The translations under genes and the position numbers were made by a program. From Eubacteriales bacterium (GTDB lineage: Bacteria; Bacillota; Clostridia; Christensenellales; Aristaeellaceae), in assembly GCA_031549325.1 (NCBI GenBank), contig JAVBQA010000018.1:18621-82620 (forward strand): a stretch of 64,000 nt of DNA, given 5' to 3'. Below, one piece after another: positions 5,439-46,263 of the stretch; position 1 is the first letter of the stretch, and every line of letters begins with the position of its first letter. The notes beneath the pieces were generated by a model. It did not search any database, was not told the DNA's origin, and saw only the letters and a list, made by a program, of their open reading frames with translations.

Positions 5439-5560
5439 CAGGCTGTCAAAAAAGCATCCGGCATGCAGGGAGGGAATGTAGAGCTTGCAGGACAGCCAAG
5501 CCCAAGGGGGATTTCGGGGGCCGAAGCCCCGGTCAAAAGACGTAGTATTTTGACAGCCTG
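5439..5560 (-). mobile_element. 122-bp internally deleted, inverted copy of the TIR-bounded repeat (copy A)
   Basis: Starts CAGGCTGTCAAAA and ends TTTTGACAGCCTG. Its left ~95 bp matches the reverse complement of the right part of copy B, and its last ~30 bp matches the reverse complement of copy B's left end. The central hairpin block is missing. Confidence 0.8.
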
Positions 5561-5607
5561 AGCGCCCCTGGCGATTGAGCCAGGGGCGCTGCCGCGTGGA
5601 TGGATGC

Positions 5608-7584
5608 TCAGAACAAGGCCCTGCCCCAGGAGAACACCCGCTGATAGTACCCGGACGTGATCGAGCTGATGATCACCTTCCCGGTGCCGGAGCTCGCATG
5701 GATCGCCTGGCCGTCGCCAAGGTAGATGCCCACATGGTCGCTCAGGTCGCCGTCGCTCACGGTGTTCCAGCACACCAGGTCGCCGCGCACCAGCTGGCTG
5801 AAGCTGATCTTGGTGCCGCAGTTATAGCCCTGCATGTAAGCCGAGTGAGGCAGACTGATGCCCACCTGCTTGTAGGCGTACATGGTAAACCCGGAGCAGT
5901 CGAAGCTGTTCATGCCGGTGGATCCGAACACATACGGTTTGCCCAGCTGCTTCATGGCAGCCGCGATCACGACGTTGGCCTTGCGCTTCTTTTCGGCCGA
6001 TGCGGGCGGCGGCTTGTTGCCGTTGTCGTCATCGTCGTTGTTATTGTTATTGGGGGCGGGCGTGGGCTTCACGCTGGGGGACGGCGTGGCCGTGGGCTGC
6101 GGGTTGTCCGAGGCAGACGGCGCGTCGTTCGAGTACAGGCGGGCCAGCGTCTTTGACCCGGCCTTGCCGTCGGCGGTCAGCCGCGCCTGGCGCTGGAAGG
6201 CCTTCACCGCGTCCGCGGTGGAATCGCCATAGCTGCCGTTGATGCGCGCCTTGAAGTAGCCTTTGGACTTGAGGCGGGTCTGCAGTCGCTTCACCTGGGT
6301 GCCCTTGCTGCCGCCCTTCAACGACGCGGACAGCAGGTTTGACCGGGGCGCGCCGGACGCGAAGAGCGCCTGCTGGGTCTTGTCGTCGGCCTTGCCGGTC
6401 TTCTTGATGTTCGCGGCATCCTGGAACAGCCTCACCGCGGACACGGTGCTCGAGCCGTACTTGGCGGAGGGTACGATGTCCAGGTATCCCAGCGCTTCCA
6501 GCCGCTGCTGCAGCTGCTTGACGGCCTCGCCCTTGGAGCCGGAGCGCAGCGTGCGGTAGCCGGAGGCCGTGGGCTTGGGGGTGGGCGACGGCGTGGGTTT
6601 GGCGGGGGCCACGAACGCGCTTTCCTTCATGTAGCCGTTCTTGCCGTGCAGCCGCACCTTGTACCAGCCGTTGTCGCCCTTGCTGACGACCGTGACCTTG
6701 GTGCCCTTCTTCACCTTGACGCGCTTGGCCGAGGTGGAGGGTTTTTGATACATGTTGGCCGAGACGATGGTCTTCATCGCCTGGGCCGCCTTCTCGGGGG
6801 ACAGCGTGGGCGCGGACGTGGGCGCGGGCGTGGGCGTTAAGCTGGGCGTTAAGCTGGGCGCCGGGGTTTCCAGCGCCGACAGCTTCACAAAGCCGGTGCG
6901 GGCGCCGCTCTTGACCTTCAGCCAGTCGCCCTGCTGTTCCATCACGAGCAGCTTTGCGCCCGCCTTGAGCGAGGTGTTCTTGGCTTTGGTGGAGCGCTTT
7001 TGATAGAGCTTGGACTTCTTTGCCACCTCTTCCTCAAAGGCGCTCTGCCGCATGTAGCCCGATTTGCCGCTCACCTTGACCCGGTACCAGCCGCCTTTTT
7101 GGGACAGCACGCTGACGGCGGTGCCCTCCTCCACGCTGGACGATTTCGAGCTGGTCTTGGCCTTTTTGTACAGCTTTGCGTCCCGCATGGCCAGCATTTG
7201 CTGGGGTTCGGGCGTCTTGGCGGGCTTTTTTGTAGCCTTGGGCGTGGCCTTGGGCTTGGGGGTGGGCTTTGGCTTTTTGGTGGCGTCGGCCGACGGCTGC
7301 GCGGGCGCGCTGAACGCGCTCGACCGCATGTAGCCTTGTTTGCCGGCGACCTTGACCTTTTTCCAGCTGCCGCTGGTGCTGACGACCGTGACCTTTGTGC
7401 CCTTGTCCACGGTTTTCAGCTTTTCCGCGCTGGTCTTTGCGCTCTTATACAGAACCGCACGCTGGACGGTGACCAGGGTGCTCGGTGACTTTTTCTTGGC
7501 CGCAAACGCCGAAGCGGGCGGTTGCAGCACCGTTAGAATCAGCAGCAACGCCATCAGGCGCCTGCCGAAGCGTCGTTCACTCAA
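5608..7584 (-). CDS. secreted NlpC/P60 peptidoglycan endopeptidase with SH3b-like repeats and PG-binding domains
   Basis: ORF 5608..7704. TTG 7584 follows GGAGGGAGGGAGA and is followed by a signal peptide (RRLMALLLILTVLQPPASAFA). Four WYKVK/WLKVK SH3b-like repeats, two PG_binding_1-like repeats (VKQLQQRLEALGY, VKRLQTRLKSKGY), and a C-terminal NlpC/P60 domain (FDCSGFTMYAYKQ ... HVGIYLG). Confidence 0.9.
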   Translation of the reverse strand: MSERRFGRRLMALLLILTVLQPPASAFAAKKKSPSTLVTVQRAVLYKSAKTSAEKLKTVDKGTKVTVVSTSGSWKKVKVAGKQGYMRSSAFSAPAQPSADATKKPKPTPKPKATPKATKKPAKTPEPQQMLAMRDAKLYKKAKTSSKSSSVEEGTAVSVLSQKGGWYRVKVSGKSGYMRQSAFEEEVAKKSKLYQKRSTKAKNTSLKAGAKLLVMEQQGDWLKVKSGARTGFVKLSALETPAPSLTPSLTPTPAPTSAPTLSPEKAAQAMKTIVSANMYQKPSTSAKRVKVKKGTKVTVVSKGDNGWYKVRLHGKNGYMKESAFVAPAKPTPSPTPKPTASGYRTLRSGSKGEAVKQLQQRLEALGYLDIVPSAKYGSSTVSAVRLFQDAANIKKTGKADDKTQQALFASGAPRSNLLSASLKGGSKGTQVKRLQTRLKSKGYFKARINGSYGDSTADAVKAFQRQARLTADGKAGSKTLARLYSNDAPSASDNPQPTATPSPSVKPTPAPNNNNNDDDDNGNKPPPASAEKKRKANVVIAAAMKQLGKPYVFGSTGMNSFDCSGFTMYAYKQVGISLPHSAYMQGYNCGTKISFSQLVRGDLVCWNTVSDGDLSDHVGIYLGDGQAIHASSGTGKVIISSITSGYYQRVFSWGRALF

Positions 7585-7654
7585 GATCGTCTCCCTCCCT
7601 CCAGGGGCGGTTTTGCGCGGATTTCCGGATTGGCAAAATCGCACCAATGAAGGA

Positions 7655-7683
7655 ATTATATCACAAATGAAATCATTTATCAA
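7655..7683 (-). promoter_or_regulatory. sigma-A type promoter of the NlpC/P60 gene
   Basis: Minus strand reads TTGATA (7683-7678), 17-nt spacer, TATAAT (7660-7655). Confidence 0.6.
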
Positions 7684-7726
7684 TAATATGCAATAAATTG
7701 GCAATAATTAACGCGGAAATGCGGCG

Positions 7727-7772
7727 AAAAACCGGCCTGCACGGCGCTTTTCCGCGCCCGCAAGCCGGCCTT
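7727..7772 (-). terminator. intrinsic terminator downstream of hflX
   Basis: The minus strand forms a nested GC hairpin (GGCCGG...GGCGC-ggaaaa-GCGCC...CCGGCC-type) followed by TTTTT. Confidence 0.6.
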
Positions 7773-7795
7773 ATTTTATAAATATTAATGAAATA

Positions 7796-9553
7796 TTACT
7801 TGGCGATCATGGCCTGCACCCGGCTGATCAGCCCGGCGTCGGCCATGCAGACAACCTGCACGCCCTGCTCGGTGTACTCCTCGCTGAGCACCTGGCCGCG
7901 CTCGTGCAGCAGGTTCAGCGCCGCGCCCTTGCTGAAGGGGATGGACAGCTCCACCTTGTGCCGGAGCTGCGCGACGCGACCCGAGATCGCCTCGGTCAGC
8001 CGATCCAGGCCCATGCCCTTCTCGGCCGAGATCAGGATGGCGTCCCTCGGCTCGATCACGTCGGTCACCGGCGCGATGTCGGCCTTGTTCAGCGCCTCCA
8101 GCACCGGCTTGTCGCCCGCGCCCAAGTCCTTCAGCACGTCGAACACCACGGCGCGCTGCTCCTCATATTGGGAGGAACTGAGGTCGGACACCACCACCAG
8201 CAGGTCGGCGAAGAGCGCCTCTTCCAGCGTGGATTTGAACGCGTCCACCAGCTGGTGGGGCAGCTTTTTGATGAAGCCTACCGTGTCGACCAACAGGCAC
8301 TCGCGGTTCTCGGGCAGGGAGATCTTGCGCATGACCGGGTCCAGCGTGGCGAACAGCTTGTCCTCCACCAGCACGTCGCTGCCCGCGAGCGCGTTGAGCA
8401 GCGTGGATTTGCCGGCGTTGGTGTAGCCCACCAGCGCCACCACCACCTGCTCGGTCTTCTTGCGGCGGGCCCTGCGCATGTCGCGCTGTTTCCCCAGCTC
8501 CGCGATCTCCTTGTTCAGGTCGTCGATGCGCTTCCTTATGCGCCGCCTGTCGACCTCGAGCTGCGTCTCGCCCGGGCCGCGCGTGCCGATGCCGCCGCCC
8601 AGGCGCGACAGCTGCGCGCCCAGCCCCATCAGCCGGGGCAGCCGGTACTTCAGCTGCGCCAGCTCCACCTGCAGCTTGCCCTCGCGGCTCTCGGCGCGGC
8701 GGGCGAAGATATCCAAAATCAGCGCGGTGCGGTCGATCACGCGCACGCCCAGCACGCGCTCCAGGTTTCGCTGCTGCGCGCCGGTCAGCTCGTCGTCAAA
8801 GATCACCAGGTCGATCTGCTCGGCCTGGCACTGCATGGCCAGCTCCTCGGCCTTGCCGCTGCCGATGTAGGTGCCCGGATCGGGCCTGTTCCGGTTCTGC
8901 AGCGCGCGGCCAACCACGATCGCGCCCGCGGTGGACGCGAGGCTGTTCAGCTCGTCCAGGCTGCGCTCGTCGTCGGTTGAGACCAGCAGCGCCTTCTCGA
9001 CCTCTTCAGTCACGTCCATCTCGCGGATGGCCTGCTCCACGCGGCGGTCGGCCAGCTCGATCTCGTGCATCCACAGGTTCTGCGGGATGCGGCCGGGTTT
9101 TACCGGGCCAAAGCTGACGATGGACAGCTGGCCGTATTCGACTTCGCCCAGGAACGCCGCGCTGATGCCGGTGGCCAGGCCTCCTTCCACGCCCACGGCG
9201 CACATGGCGTCAAAGCGCAGCAGCCGCAGCGCCTGCTCGTCCACGTCGGAAAGCCGCGCGCTGCCGCCCGGATGGGTGTGGATGCAGCGGATGCCGGAGA
9301 GCCGCTCCACGTTTCGCCGCAGGTGCCGCTCGGGCAAGCCCACGCTGGCGATGGAGCCGACGGCGATCTCCAGGATCGTGCCCTCGCGGGTCATGTAGAC
9401 CATCAGCTCCCGGTTCAGCGCGTCGGTGTGTCGGATCAGCAGGTTCAGCAGCCTGTCCGGCAGGAACAGGTCGCGCTCAAACTCCATGTCGTACAGCTTC
9501 TCCAGCTCTTGCAGCACGGAATCGCGAATGCCCTCGATGTTGCCGTGTATCAT
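7796..9553 (-). CDS. hflX: GTPase HflX with an N-terminal JAB/RadC-like extension
   Basis: 585 aa. HflX core: GYTNAGKSTLLNAL (G1), DTVGFI (G3), NKAD (G4), and the preceding HflX N-domain (DRTALILDIFARRA, LQVELAQLKYRLPRL). About 185 extra N-terminal residues contain IHTHPGGSARLSDVD. AAGGGGGAAA RBS before ATG 9553. Confidence 0.9.
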   Translation of the reverse strand: MIHGNIEGIRDSVLQELEKLYDMEFERDLFLPDRLLNLLIRHTDALNRELMVYMTREGTILEIAVGSIASVGLPERHLRRNVERLSGIRCIHTHPGGSARLSDVDEQALRLLRFDAMCAVGVEGGLATGISAAFLGEVEYGQLSIVSFGPVKPGRIPQNLWMHEIELADRRVEQAIREMDVTEEVEKALLVSTDDERSLDELNSLASTAGAIVVGRALQNRNRPDPGTYIGSGKAEELAMQCQAEQIDLVIFDDELTGAQQRNLERVLGVRVIDRTALILDIFARRAESREGKLQVELAQLKYRLPRLMGLGAQLSRLGGGIGTRGPGETQLEVDRRRIRKRIDDLNKEIAELGKQRDMRRARRKKTEQVVVALVGYTNAGKSTLLNALAGSDVLVEDKLFATLDPVMRKISLPENRECLLVDTVGFIKKLPHQLVDAFKSTLEEALFADLLVVVSDLSSSQYEEQRAVVFDVLKDLGAGDKPVLEALNKADIAPVTDVIEPRDAILISAEKGMGLDRLTEAISGRVAQLRHKVELSIPFSKGAALNLLHERGQVLSEEYTEQGVQVVCMADAGLISRVQAMIAK

Positions 9554-17982: not shown

Positions 17983-18021
17983 GCGCGGGGGCCCGAACCT
18001 TTAAGGTTCGGGCCCCCGCTT
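17983..18021. repeat. left copy of the duplicated 39-nt terminator hairpin flanking repeat copy B
   Basis: GCGCGGGGGCCCGAACCTTTAAGGTTCGGGCCCCCGCTT has a 17-bp perfect stem. It is 38/39 identical to 18247-18285. Confidence 0.9.
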
Positions 18022-18246
18022 CAGGCTGTCAAAATACTTTGTCTTTTGACAGCGAAATGCAAGTCTTGTGAATCAGGGATTCACGGGCAGACTTGCATCC
18101 AGTGCGGAAATCGCCTGCGGGCGCGCAGGTCGCCCTTCGGCGGCTTTGATCCGGGGACTTCGGCCCCCGAAAACCCCCTTGGGCTTGGCTGCTTCTGGAA
18201 GCTCAACATTCCCTCCCTGCATGCCAGATACTTTTTTGACAGCCTG
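18022..18246 (+). mobile_element. 225-bp TIR-bounded hairpin-rich non-coding element (MITE-like), copy B
   Basis: 13-bp perfect terminal inverted repeats CAGGCTGTCAAAA / TTTTGACAGCCTG. The internal sequence is a chain of stem-loops. Same length and largely the same sequence as 44257-44481. Confidence 0.85.
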
Positions 18247-18285
18247 GCGCGGGGGCCCGAACCTTTACGGTTCGGGCCCCCGCTT
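18247..18285. repeat. right copy of the duplicated 39-nt terminator hairpin flanking repeat copy B
   Basis: GCGCGGGGGCCCGAACCTTTACGGTTCGGGCCCCCGCTT has one loop-proximal mismatch relative to 17983-18021. Confidence 0.9.
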
Positions 18286-43070: not shown

Positions 43071-44210
43071 ATGCAGTACCGCTCCATTGGCAACACGGGA
43101 TTGAACGGCAGCGTGCTGGGCCTCGGCTGCGAGCACCTGGACAACAAGCCCTACGAGCAGGTGAAGGAGACGATCGACGCCGCGCTCGAGGTGGGTGTCA
43201 ACCTGATGGATATGTTCATGCCCGGGCTCGCGGTGCGCGAGAACCTGGCCAGAGCGCTGGGCGCGCGCAGGAAAGACGTGCTGATCCAGGGGCACATCGG
43301 CTCCACAGACGTCAAGCAGCAGTACGACATCAGCCGCGACCTGCCCACCGTGAAGCGCTTCTTCGAGGACATGCTGCGGCTGTTCGGGCGGATCGAGTTC
43401 GGCATGATGTTCTTCATCGACTCGGAGGAGGACTACAAGGGCGTGTTCGACACCGGCTTTGCGGACTACGTGCGGAGCCTCAAACAGAACGGCGACATCG
43501 GGCACATCGGGTTCAGCTCCCACAACCCGGTCACCGCCATGCGCGTGATCAACACGGGGCTTCCCGAGACGATGATGTTCAGCATCAACCCGGCGTTTGA
43601 CATGCTGCCGGCCAGCGAGTACGTCTTCGACCACTTCGAGAAGGGGTTTGGGCCGGAGCTGTTCCGGGGCATCGATCCGGTGCGCGCCGAGCTGTACAAG
43701 CTGTGCGAGCAGAAGGGCATCGGCGTCACCGTGATGAAGACGCTGGGCGCTGGCAAGCTGATCAGCAGGCAGCACTCGCCCTTCGCCCAGCCGCTCACCG
43801 TGCACCAGTGCATGCACTACGCGCTGACCCGGCCGGCGGTGAGCAGCGTGCTGCTCGGCTGCAAGAGCCGCCAGGAAGTGCTGGACGCCGCGCGCTATTT
43901 TGAGCTGAGCGCGGACGAGCTTGACTATGGCCCCGCGCTGGGCACGTTGCGCAACGATTTTGCGGGCAACTGCGTCTACTGCTCCCACTGTCAGCCCTGT
44001 CCGGTCCAGATCGACATCGCTGCTGTCAACAAGTATCTGGACATCGCGAAGCTGGACGAGCTGCATGTTCCGCCGTCGGTGAAATCGCACTACAAGGCGA
44101 TGCCCGCCAGCGGCGCGGACTGCATCGCCTGCGGCAGCTGCGAGAGCCGGTGCCCGTTCGGCGTGCCGGTGATCGACAACATGAGGAAGGCGGAGGCGCT
44201 GCTCGGGTAG
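43071..44210 (+). CDS. aldo/keto reductase with a C-terminal 4Fe-4S binding domain
   Basis: 379 aa. MQYRSIGNTGLNGSVLGLGCEHL AKR start. C-terminal CSHCQPCP and CIACGSCESRCP motifs. Confidence 0.85.
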   Translation: MQYRSIGNTGLNGSVLGLGCEHLDNKPYEQVKETIDAALEVGVNLMDMFMPGLAVRENLARALGARRKDVLIQGHIGSTDVKQQYDISRDLPTVKRFFEDMLRLFGRIEFGMMFFIDSEEDYKGVFDTGFADYVRSLKQNGDIGHIGFSSHNPVTAMRVINTGLPETMMFSINPAFDMLPASEYVFDHFEKGFGPELFRGIDPVRAELYKLCEQKGIGVTVMKTLGAGKLISRQHSPFAQPLTVHQCMHYALTRPAVSSVLLGCKSRQEVLDAARYFELSADELDYGPALGTLRNDFAGNCVYCSHCQPCPVQIDIAAVNKYLDIAKLDELHVPPSVKSHYKAMPASGADCIACGSCESRCPFGVPVIDNMRKAEALLG

Positions 44211-44224
44211 GGCCTATGCGCAAC

Positions 44225-44256
44225 AGACGAGGGATGGCGTTAGCCATCCCTCGTCT
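44225..44256. repeat. left copy of the duplicated 32-nt terminator segment flanking repeat copy C
   Basis: AGACGAGGGATGGCGTTAGCCATCCCTCGTCT is 30/32 identical to 44482-44513. Confidence 0.85.
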
Positions 44257-44481
44257 CAGGCTGTCAAAAGACTGCGTCTTTTGACAGCGAAATGCAAGTC
44301 TTGTGAATCGTGGATTCACGGGCAGACTTGCATGCATCAAGGATCGCAGCCTGCGGGCGCGCAGGTCGCCCTTCGGCGGCTTTGATCCGGGGGCTTCGGC
44401 CCCCGAAAACCCCCTTGGGCTCGGCTATTCTGCAGGCTCTACGTTTTTTCCCTGTATGAAACAGACTTTTTTGACAGACTG
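44257..44481 (+). mobile_element. 225-bp TIR-bounded hairpin-rich non-coding element (MITE-like), copy C
   Basis: CAGGCTGTCAAAA ... TTTTGACAGACTG (12/13 TIR). Same length and hairpin organisation as 18022-18246. Confidence 0.85.
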
Positions 44482-44513
44482 AGACAGGGGATGGCGTTAG
44501 CCATCCCTCGTCT
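44482..44513. repeat. right copy of the duplicated 32-nt terminator segment flanking repeat copy C
   Basis: AGACAGGGGATGGCGTTAGCCATCCCTCGTCT. The outer CAAC (44221-44224) and GTTG (44514-44517) of the original 40-nt palindrome are each present only once. Confidence 0.85.
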
Positions 44514-44526
44514 GTTGTACGGGCGG

Positions 44527-46188
44527 TTACAGCGTCAGATCGTCGTACTCGCCGTAGTTCGGGGGCACGACGCCCGGGTTGAACACGCTAACCAGCCGCC
44601 CCTCCACAAAATCCAGCTGCTCGTTGCCCGACACGGCGAACGGTATGTCTCTTCCCATGTATTGGATGCTGCCGGCGGTTCGCCGGGCGGTCATCCCGAT
44701 CACCGATTTCAGCCGGCCTTCCCGATCTGTCACCAGCCGCAGCCCGGCGGGGAAGGCCAAGACCAGTTCTCCGCCGCGGTACATTTGCGCGCCCGCAGGG
44801 CCGTTCACCAGCTCGATTAGCGCGCCGTCCACGCAGCGGCTGTAGCCGGTGAACTCGGCCACCGTCTGGCCGTAGTCCACGCCGCCGGGAACCTGGGACG
44901 TCAGCAGCAGCGTGCCGTCGGGCCTCGGGAAGACGCCGATCATGCGCTCCAGATAGTCCAGCAGCGTCAGCATGGTGGGGGTGTAGTTTTCCTTGTAGCC
45001 GGGGACGCCGACCCAGGCGCTCAGGCTGCCCGCGAACCGGTCGAAGCGGGACAGCGCCGTCACGATCGGATGCAGAATCCACGACAGCTCCACATGGCGG
45101 CGGTGGTGGTCGAACATCGCGGGCAGCCGCAGCTCCGTCAGGAAGCTGATCTGTCCCGACCAGCTGTTGTGTTCGATGGTCTGGCTGAAGCCGGGCTCGT
45201 CCATGGCGATGGTGGTGATGGGGTAGCGCGCGAAGTACTTGCGGGTGTTCAGGAAATAGCGGCGCAGCGCGTCCTCGAACATCTGGTCGTCGCCCACCTC
45301 GCAGGCGAAAACCCGCATCAGGTTGTCGGTCTGGATGCGCACGAACCTTCCCAGCTTGTCCCGGTCGTAGAAATAGTGGTCGCGCTCGTCGTAGCAGTGC
45401 TCCATCAGGCTCTTCAGCGTCTGGGCGGCCTTGGCCGTCCAGTCGGCCGCGATGGAAAGCTCGTCCGCCATTTTTTGCAGGTACAGCCGCTGGCAATAGA
45501 CGTTGGCGGTCATGTCGGGCGCGAGGAACGGCAGGATGGGGGAGGCCGGATCGCACCGGGCGGGGTCGGCGTTAAGCGGCACGTCCGGGCAGTGCCAGAA
45601 GCGGGGCGATGCGTCGTTGCCGGTGTCAAACGTGCAGAACGCCTCCACGCAGCCGGTGCCGCGCGTGTCCCGGTGCTTGGCGAGCCATTCGTCATTGCGC
45701 GCGATGGCGTGGTACATCTTGCCGAGAAAAGCCTTGTCCCCGTGCAGCTGGTAGTGGTTCCACACGCAGCGCGCCAGCGGCGTGACCATCTGCACCTGGC
45801 GGTAGGCCGGGCCCGCGTCCGTGTGCTTGTAGGGGATCAGCCCGTCGTCCCGGATGTAGTCGGCGAACAGCGCAAAGCTGCTCTGCGCCGCGCCCGGGCA
45901 GAAGCGGGAAAAGACCTCGCTGTTGATGGTGCCGGTGCTCTCCAGCCAGCAGCCGATGAAGTTCGCGCCCTCGATCAGCATCGGGGAGCCGTTGGCCGAC
46001 GGCCACACGCAGCGCATCAGGCTTTCGACGGCGCGGTAGAACACGGCCTCGATCTCCGGGTGGGAGGCCGCGAACTTCACGCCGGAGCCGAGAAAGTCCC
46101 GGAGTGCGGCCTGGCCGGCCTCGGCGTCCGGGGCGGCCACGCGGGATTCGACGGTGGTGGAGCGGAGTTTTTCAAGGATGGATCGCAT
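44527..46188 (-). CDS. six-hairpin glycoside hydrolase (GH63/MGH1- or trehalase-like)
   Basis: ORF 44527..46218; ATG 46188 follows GGGGAGG. FDTGNDASPRFW resembles the (E/D)SGMDNSPRW block of GH63/GH37-type (alpha/alpha)6 enzymes. Sits in a sugar-utilisation locus. Confidence 0.65.
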   Translation of the reverse strand: MRSILEKLRSTTVESRVAAPDAEAGQAALRDFLGSGVKFAASHPEIEAVFYRAVESLMRCVWPSANGSPMLIEGANFIGCWLESTGTINSEVFSRFCPGAAQSSFALFADYIRDDGLIPYKHTDAGPAYRQVQMVTPLARCVWNHYQLHGDKAFLGKMYHAIARNDEWLAKHRDTRGTGCVEAFCTFDTGNDASPRFWHCPDVPLNADPARCDPASPILPFLAPDMTANVYCQRLYLQKMADELSIAADWTAKAAQTLKSLMEHCYDERDHYFYDRDKLGRFVRIQTDNLMRVFACEVGDDQMFEDALRRYFLNTRKYFARYPITTIAMDEPGFSQTIEHNSWSGQISFLTELRLPAMFDHHRRHVELSWILHPIVTALSRFDRFAGSLSAWVGVPGYKENYTPTMLTLLDYLERMIGVFPRPDGTLLLTSQVPGGVDYGQTVAEFTGYSRCVDGALIELVNGPAGAQMYRGGELVLAFPAGLRLVTDREGRLKSVIGMTARRTAGSIQYMGRDIPFAVSGNEQLDFVEGRLVSVFNPGVVPPNYGEYDDLTL

Positions 46189-46263
46189 AACAGCCTCCCC
46201 GTTTGCGGCCGCGGTCAACGGGCGCCAAAGAGCGTCGCGGGACCGCGGCGGCGTTGCATGTTC

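Follow-up and report, generated by a model that had tools for sequence, protein, structure and literature searches.

The 64,000-nucleotide stretch of Eubacteriales DNA analysed here (contig JAVBQA010000018.1; the window) contains a 225-bp element held between two near-identical hairpins, in the gap between two convergent genes. The element occupies 44257-44481, as established by direct reading of 44101-44640 and by a repeat finder, and is bounded by terminal inverted repeats (TIRs) that agree at 12 of 13 positions; its left end reads CAGGCTGTCAAAA, its right end TTTTGACAGaCTG, and its 3′ terminal letters are TTTTGACAGACTG. Only spurious, overlapping open reading frames (ORFs) cross this span, making the element non-coding. 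The gene on one side, for an Fe-S aldo-keto reductase, stops at 44210; the one on the other side, for an MGH1-like (GH63-type) glycoside hydrolase, stops at 44527. On the sequence evidence, a MITE (miniature inverted-repeat transposable element) has probably inserted into a palindromic stem-loop between these convergent genes, duplicating the whole hairpin at joints that appear to be set by the structure of the target.

43071-44210, + strand: aldo-keto reductase with a C-terminal 4Fe-4S domain (ORF; Pfam PF00248 and PF13187), its 3′ end towards the insertion site
44221-44224, no strand: CAAC, outermost left arm of the palindrome, unduplicated (sequence; palindrome reconstruction)
44225-44256, no strand: left 32-nt copy of the target duplication, a perfect hairpin (14-bp arms, 4-nt gap; repeats D1 and I8), probably the retained terminator-type stem-loop of the + strand gene
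44257-44481, + strand (oriented with the terminal palindrome 5′): 225-bp non-coding MITE-type element (repeat analysis; relatives L022, L026, L052 and L093)
44257-44269, + strand: left TIR CAGGCTGTCAAAA (six ends in the window, 0-1 mismatch)
44260-44288, + strand: terminal palindrome H1, GCTGTCAAAAGAC-tgc-GTCTTTTGACAGC, the left TIR followed by its own inverted copy (repeat I9)
44292-44333, + strand: second hairpin H2, ATGCAAGTCT...AGACTTGCAT, with inner stem GTGAATC/GATTCAC (repeat I12; fold), conserved within the subfamily
44389-44404, + strand: hairpin GGGGGC-TTCG-GCCCCC with a C(UUCG)G-type tetraloop (sequence; fold)
44469-44481, − strand: right TIR CAGTCTGTCAAAA, 12/13 against the left (sequence)
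44482-44513, no strand: right 32-nt copy of the duplication, 30/32 against the left, with two changes that weaken the stem (repeats D1 and I10; terminator-like score); the stem-loop closest to the 3′ end of the − strand gene
44514-44517, no strand: GTTG, outermost right arm of the palindrome, unduplicated (sequence)
44527-46218, − strand: MGH1-like (GH63-type) glycoside hydrolase, convergent (ORF; Pfam PF22422)

The two flanks, AGACGAGGGATGGCGTTAGCCATCCCTCGTCT on the left and AGACAGGGGATGGCGTTAGCCATCCCTCGTCT on the right, both fold as hairpins, the left with 14-bp arms and the right with 14-bp arms that include 2 mismatches. The outer arms CAAC and GTTG are present once each, and excision of the 225-bp element together with one repeat reconstructs a 40-nt palindrome in which the duplication ends at offsets of -4/-4. 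These results confirm every coordinate of an earlier sequence-only reading of the site, which had described the 225-bp length, the 12/13 TIRs, the 30/32 flanks and the single CAAC and GTTG; the reconstruction agrees with the palindrome that it had restored, and the Pfam assignments with its placement of the site between convergent Fe-S reductase and GH63-like genes.

Over the full 64 kb, a 24-nt core of the hairpin is present at 2 sites only, in direct orientation at each; 0 are expected by chance. The CGTTAG loop has the same polarity in the left and right hairpin copies, and the duplication is therefore direct rather than inverted. A simple terminator scan scored the right copy alone (44487-44508) as terminator-like, and a terminator function for the hairpins at this site is plausible.

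Duplicated stem-loops among the relatives

Relatives were sought by scanning a genome collection for the pattern GGCTGTCAAAA-N5-9-TTTTGACAG, which corresponds to the terminal palindrome H1. More than 114 loci matched, overwhelmingly in metagenome-assembled genomes (MAGs) of Oscillospiraceae/Eubacteriales; single MAGs such as those of Ca. Onthomonas avicola and Lapin-012 bin104 contain many copies. H1 is invariant across alignments A2, A5 and A6 and is the signature module of the superfamily; the TIRs are conserved superfamily-wide, and element length among the relatives is 174-346 bp. The only full-length close homologue of the window element is L022 (86% identity), while L026, L052 and L093 are partial, remoter members of the same subfamily. 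The remaining loci are sister subfamilies, which have in common H1, the opposite terminus CAGAGTGTCAAAAAAGG and the overall layout. An internal 27-base pattern of the window element had 0 matches in genome and metagenome contigs, and a blastn search of plasmids with this element returned no match. Because it is short and non-coding, has TIRs, is flanked by site-specific duplications that differ, and occurs in several dispersed copies, the 225-bp sequence is assigned as a non-autonomous transposon with TIRs, a MITE belonging to a superfamily spread in Oscillospiraceae/Eubacteriales.

A first pass gave 29 elements of 174-302 bp, all of them (29/29) flanked by a duplicated hairpin whose sequence is unique to each element. 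A covariance model trained on 12 of the 29 returned 48 strong, strand-specific matches. The final survey, composed of covariance-model matches, the window copies and window-subfamily relatives, comprises 50 full-length elements: 3 in the window and 47 from Oscillospiraceae/Eubacteriales. In 38 of the 50 (76%), the element is abutted by direct repeats 20-40 nt long (median 28), with the TIRs within 0-4 nt of the repeats. Each of the 38 duplications represents a whole GC-rich stem-loop; no sequence is common between sites, which share the hairpin form only.

Across these 38 copies, the duplication is longer where the best local palindrome is longer (correlation of the two lengths: Pearson 0.84, p = 7e-11; Spearman 0.88), and subtracting the palindrome from the duplication leaves a median of +1.5 nt and a range of -8 to +5. 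In 32 of the 38, both ends of the duplication lie at the same distance from the dyad to within 2 nt. The usual position of the cuts is the base of the stem or 1-2 nt beyond it. Together, the length correlation and the dyad centring argue for structure-guided cutting of the target, with the apparent cut positions following structure and not a fixed ruler. The flank survey and the comparison of duplication with palindrome had both been proposed by the sequence-only reading, and their outcome on the 50 elements supports the structure-guided cleavage that it favoured. Neither outcome that it had named as a refutation occurred: duplication length does follow hairpin size, and the hairpin sequence differs at every site, so that the flanks do not belong to any larger composite repeat. 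The symmetry of the breakpoints about the dyad also proves general, but their placement 4 bp inside the stem, taken from the 44-kb copy, is an outlier against the median.

Members of the window subfamily elsewhere conform as well: the hairpin duplication of L052 is perfect and 33-34 nt long, and that of L026 measures ~22 nt. The L052 element (7231-7576) contains an additional hairpin-rich internal segment of ~120-130 bp with its duplication nonetheless intact, and extra internal cargo is therefore tolerated.

Both duplicates retain a substantial hairpin in 28 of the 33 pairs that align without gaps, and in 13 of the 33 the duplicates are identical. Differences between duplicates comprise 20 in loops, 7 that form wobble pairs, 2 that are compensated and 10 that break the stem. 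The proposal that each convergent gene keeps its own stem-loop fits this retention and the location of most differences in loops.

Some orthologous sites are filled in two species (L083:7433-7708 and L096:2063-2346; also L104/L095 and L020/L009). At the L083/L096 site, the hairpin copies within a genome are more alike than the orthologous copies, which implies either independent insertions at one terminator or concerted evolution of both copies. At two sites the stems of the flanks are identical and the loops reverse-complemented: AGAC versus GTCT at L098:6575-6809, and at L104:1120-1350 GGCA versus TTCC, the latter close to TGCC. This looks like inversion within one hairpin copy after duplication.

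Proposed capture of the target hairpin

The insertion would proceed as follows. A transposase supplied in trans, assumed to be of the DDE type, would join both 3′ ends of the element to the target, a palindromic stem-loop of the intrinsic-terminator type between two convergent genes. By the standard logic of DDE transposition, a direct duplication means that each strand is joined on the 5′ side of the duplicated segment. Here, the two joining points would be related by the twofold symmetry of the palindrome, each strand being attacked at the 5′ foot of its own stem-loop. Extrusion of the palindrome, into a cruciform or into hairpins, makes this easiest to envisage: on B-form DNA the joints would lie 20-40 bp apart, at variable distance and helical phase, whereas on a cruciform they would be adjacent and twofold-related. 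Gap repair would then copy everything between the joints, that is, the whole stem-loop, leaving the element between two hairpins. With the stem base and not a fixed distance setting the joints, the duplication would range over 20-40 nt and track hairpin size. Each neighbouring gene keeps a stem-loop, so the insertion would cost little and may be close to neutral.

The geometry is reminiscent of Holliday-junction resolvases. RuvC-type resolvases, which have an RNase H fold, make paired, dyad-symmetric cleavages at the base of a four-way junction, leaving nicks that can be religated. The analogy is one of geometry only, with no claim of homology, and resolvases join no foreign DNA.

Several observations weigh against this account. 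In five to eight copies, including the 44-kb copy, the palindrome extends 3-8 nt beyond the duplication, so that the base of the stem does not always mark the cut; L031, L097, L101 and L087 fall with the 44-kb copy in this minority class. The long duplication is absent from 12 of the 50 copies. Six of these 12 (L099, L064, L095, L004, L022 and the 5-kb copy in the window) are flanked by two unlike hairpins, for which the simple model gives no explanation. No empty site was found in related genomes, and the single-palindrome ancestor is a reconstruction only; the related loci include orthologous filled sites (L083/L096, L104/L095 and L020/L009) and no empty ones. The flanking reductase gave no route to an orthologous empty site, because its nearest homologue is only 78% identical. 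The cruciform is suggested by geometry, and sequence cannot separate it from single-stranded hairpins. Finally, searches of the window, of 850 kb of related loci and of collections of viral, metagenome, plasmid and phage sequences turned up neither a transposase nor an autonomous partner.

In two copies without the long duplication, at sites that lack a hairpin, the duplication is short: 6-7 bp, GGAATT(G), at L079 and ~10 bp at the second L098 copy. This suggests an ordinary small stagger on DNA without a hairpin. Some copies with unlike hairpins may be old insertions whose hairpin copies have diverged and still fold, because the L104 site, orthologous to that of L095, still has a 20-nt duplication. 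Alternatively, recombination between copies may have swapped flanks.

The search for a partner covered several routes. All-against-all clustering of 1171 ORFs from the loci gave no multi-copy transposase, and TIR pairs 0.9-2.6 kb apart enclose ordinary genes only (lipase-like, aminotransferase, DegV and glycerate kinase). Scans of viral contigs returned nothing or chance matches, a second metagenome scan returned nothing, and a blastn search of plasmids and phages with a sister element gave no match. Because no transposase was found, the enzyme family and its chemistry are assumed. The absence of a partner proves little, because MAG assemblies often lose multi-copy insertion sequences. Once the transposase is known, the stem-tracking duplications, the dyad-centred breakpoints and the short duplications off hairpins make capture of a cruciform or hairpin directly testable.

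The principle of hairpin duplication is already published, for IS1630 and in the model for IS1272/IS1182. IS1630 of Mycoplasma fermentans is reported to make unusually long duplications of 16-26 bp that vary between sites (PMC3317919). The likeness of this IS30-family element lies in long, variable duplications made of inverted repeats, 20-40 nt here against 16-26 bp. In contrast to the 225-bp non-coding element of high-GC Clostridia, IS1630 resides in an AT-rich mollicute, is autonomous and 1.2-1.4 kb long, and has 27-bp TIRs and a transposase of the IS30 type. No relation is known between the termini CAGGCTGTCAAAA and the ends of IS30.

The geometry proposed here is that of pathway b in the model drawn for IS1272, where both stem-loops of a cruciform are attacked at their 5′ feet and the stem-loop is duplicated, whereas IS1272 itself uses the 3′ feet and deletes or replaces the stem-loop, leaving no duplication (PMC5678879). 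The staphylococcal IS1272/IS1182 elements resemble the present family in targeting stem-loops of variable size and sequence, often just past genes, and some copies here likewise lack a duplication. IS1272 differs in being autonomous, 1.9 kb long and bounded by 16-bp TIRs, and in replacing the stem-loop that 76% of the copies here duplicate. The partner searches found no IS1182-type transposase.

Insertion sequences that target REP/BIME palindromes (IS1397, ISKpn1, ISPpu9/10) use extragenic palindromes as safe landing sites (PMC1525189, PMC12288879). Their target is a conserved palindrome family, entered in or beside the loop with a short or no duplication, whereas the hairpins here are unique and duplicated entire. 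Bacterial MITEs with IS5-type ends, such as MITEPgRS of P. gingivalis and those with ISNme1 and ISPg4 termini, have TIRs of the style GAGnCTGTTGCA(AAA) (Table 2, PMC4596501). They too are small, non-coding, intergenic and multi-copy, often lie beside terminators, and have GAGnCTGTTGCA(AAA) ends that resemble GAGGCTGTCAAAAA here; the ends GAGACTGTTGCA (ISPg4) and GAGACCTTTGCAAAA (ISNme1) bear a loose resemblance to the present termini that is short and could be coincidental. Their duplications measure 2-9 bp, and neither hairpin duplication nor a covarying multi-helix core is reported for them. No description was found of the present MITE superfamily or of its conserved folded core.

Three further assignments were set aside. 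The CAG...CAAAA termini are like those of IS630/Tc1-like elements, but there is no TA target. Derivation from an IS200/IS605 palindrome element conflicts with the TIRs and long duplications and with a terminal palindrome at one end only. REP, BIME and REPIN sequences do not match flanking hairpins that are unique per site, the only repeated hairpin being H1 of the element itself.

Few bacterial transposons are documented to choose targets by shape, each from a handful of insertions; in the present family, independent events number in the dozens. Every insertion leaves the terminator in tandem copies, separated by a spacer of ~200 nt that is rich in hairpins, which can mislead terminator, small-RNA and repeat annotation in gut Clostridia, and the duplicated copies offer homology for rearrangements.

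Folded core and alternative explanations

The sister subfamilies have five or six helices in common, with sequence that varies while pairing is kept. In a model-based alignment of 48 sister elements, 96.9% of cells are paired, both sides change in 35 of 61 pairs (compensatory double changes), and several pairs occur as three pair types; fitting of the alignment to the model inflates these pairing values, and the sequences fall in two main clades. None of 500 shuffles reached the observed pairing values, and sliding the partners by 1-3 columns reduced pairing to 36-48%. On the strand with H1 at its 5′ end, G-U outnumbers A-C by 108 to 16. In two subfamilies, one UNCG-class tetraloop replaces another (UUCG for UGCG); at the position of the 44389-44404 tetraloop, L026 and L093 have C(UGCG)G. 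Folding z-scores are -4.7 to -6. The model, R1, misses the window subfamily, which has too few members of its own, so that the covariation evidence concerns the sister subfamilies only. An RNAalifold consensus on a mixed-subfamily MAFFT alignment missed the helices, its columns being out of register, and the covariance-model alignment was used instead.

A covarying interior is unusual for a MITE. A structural requirement of mobilisation, an undescribed RNA, single-stranded DNA (ssDNA) or protein-binding palindromes are all conceivable. A speculative proposal, with a low probability, gives the ~200-nt core (helices H2-H6, exchanged UNCG loops and a long-range helix) an active role in mobility, as an RNA or ssDNA scaffold that aids hairpin capture. 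If true, the shape of the target would be read by a nucleic-acid fold besides a protein, and the elements would form a new structure-guided class.

These same features could instead mark the element as mainly a structured RNA gene or cis-regulatory RNA that spreads through the activity of its RNA, with the terminator hairpins as its own transcription boundaries and the transposon traits secondary. The sister-subfamily covariation, the G-U bias, the tetraloop exchange and the z-scores would all fit, but no promoter-like site was found in or beside the window element; an internal sigma-70 promoter built on the TTGACA within the TIR was rejected, having no acceptable -10 element. No Rfam 15 model reached its gathering score on the element, either in the window or across 16 related loci, and permissive thresholds gave only chance-level matches. 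Moreover, the window element folds equally well on its two strands (z-scores -5.4 and -6.0), the model-fitted alignment inflates pairing, and the window subfamily is too small to show covariation. An RNA identity would leave the TIRs and the site-specific duplications unexplained; it would add to a transposon identity without replacing it, and as the main explanation it is unlikely. The main alternative to a duplex cruciform is that the same transposase chemistry acts on a hairpin in ssDNA, on the lagging-strand template or at a gene end opened by transcription. Strong palindromes at gene 3′ ends would suit such a target, and an element that is a chain of covarying hairpins, with G-T/G-U favouring one strand by 108 to 16, would fit an ssDNA intermediate. 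A direct duplication on both sides, however, needs both target strands to be joined at dyad-symmetric points, and the known single-strand transposons, IS200/IS605, have neither duplications nor TIRs. A single-stranded target is given only a small chance.

Two further explanations were weighed. Within the 44-kb copy, the flanks look like part of one 49-nt inverted repeat (I1), as they would if the mobile or repeated unit were hairpin-element-hairpin and no target had been duplicated. This is scarcely tenable: the hairpins are wholly unlike among the three window copies and the 38 copies elsewhere, the 44-kb hairpin is found nowhere else in the window, and conservation in the alignments ends exactly at the TIRs. 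Duplication of an integrase attachment site, or a homology-driven insertion with long target duplication, would need no staggered cut, and restriction-modification units provide a precedent with transposase-free long target duplications of variable length, from 30 bp upward (PMC2853133). Attachment-site recombination requires one core in element and target, but the targets all differ, the element does not contain the hairpin sequence, and no common core was found. The element has defined TIRs that lie 0-4 nt from the repeats, the limits of the repeats follow the base of the stem, and there is no integrase nearby; the serine recombinases at L007 and similar loci lie beside a different palindrome context. 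Such an origin is very improbable. Transposition into a palindromic stem-loop, with the whole hairpin duplicated, remains the preferred explanation of the 44-kb site.

Further copies and other repeats

Six ends within the window carry the 13-nt terminus with 0-1 mismatch, where chance alone would give 1.3 matches. These form 3 copies in the 64 kb, each just beyond the 3′ end of a gene. The TIRs of the two other copies match at 13/13 positions.

17983-18285, + strand: sister copy, a 225-bp element at 18022-18246 within 39-nt direct repeats (17983-18021 and 18247-18285; 38/39 identical), downstream of cbiC
5439-5560, − strand: third copy, 122 bp, with perfect TIRs; ~103 bp lost between short CTTTGA repeats

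The 18-kb element is 90-97% identical in blocks to the 44-kb copy. Its hairpin repeat is unlike the 44-kb one in sequence, and its duplication overshoots the 35-nt palindrome by 2 nt per side. The 5-kb copy has a convergent LytR-type gene on one side and an NlpC/P60 gene on the other; it has no target duplication and is flanked by unlike hairpins on its two sides (one, at 5561-5590, with a 12-bp stem). The NlpC/P60 gene (5608-7704) contains internal direct repeats at 6058-7433, in 46-nt and 66-nt families, that represent repeated SH3 and peptidoglycan-binding domains.

The best relatives of the reductase at the 44-kb site, at 78% identity, belong to Eubacteriales/Christensenellales MAGs. P0002 was rejected as a near-identical relative, as its bit score is misleading and it is an internally duplicated distant homologue.

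A solo 31-nt terminal palindrome, GGCTGTCAAAATACTGCGTCTTTTGACAG, lies beside a terminator hairpin with the rest of the element missing at L092:2461-2493 and L114:6626-6656; such solo palindromes could be excision footprints or deletion remnants. The second of these adjoins a different miniature element (L114:6657-6930) of ~197 bp (6698-6894), which has termini AGGCATCGAAAAACC... / ...GGAGACTTTGTTGATGG and is flanked by a duplicated ~36-nt hairpin, CTGAGyGGCCrGGGCATTTCGCCCCGGCCGCTCA. Hairpin duplication may therefore be common to more than one element type. Palindromes of the form GGCTGTCAAAA...TTTTGACAGCC adjoin the 3′ ends of small serine recombinase genes (YGYVRVS...) at L007 (4570-4769), L013, L023, L047 and L067, in a context unlike that of the miniature elements.

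Another repeat family consists of a palindrome, GGCTGTCAAAATCAAAGATTTTGACAG, between AATACTAATTC / GAATTAGTATT inverted repeats, together with a second hairpin. It occurs in Ruminococcus and Oscillospiraceae MAGs at L008, L010, L015, L029, L032, L035 (5690-5790), L089 and L100. The L035 locus also contains, at 7650-8000, a tandem array of the 30-nt unit TTTTTGAAAGCCTGAATCTTTCACATCAAA in at least 11 copies, reaching the end of the locus. The Rfam scan of the related loci identified a 6S RNA gene (L002:5103-5296) and an RT-5 RNA (L101:3284-3383), both unrelated to the element.

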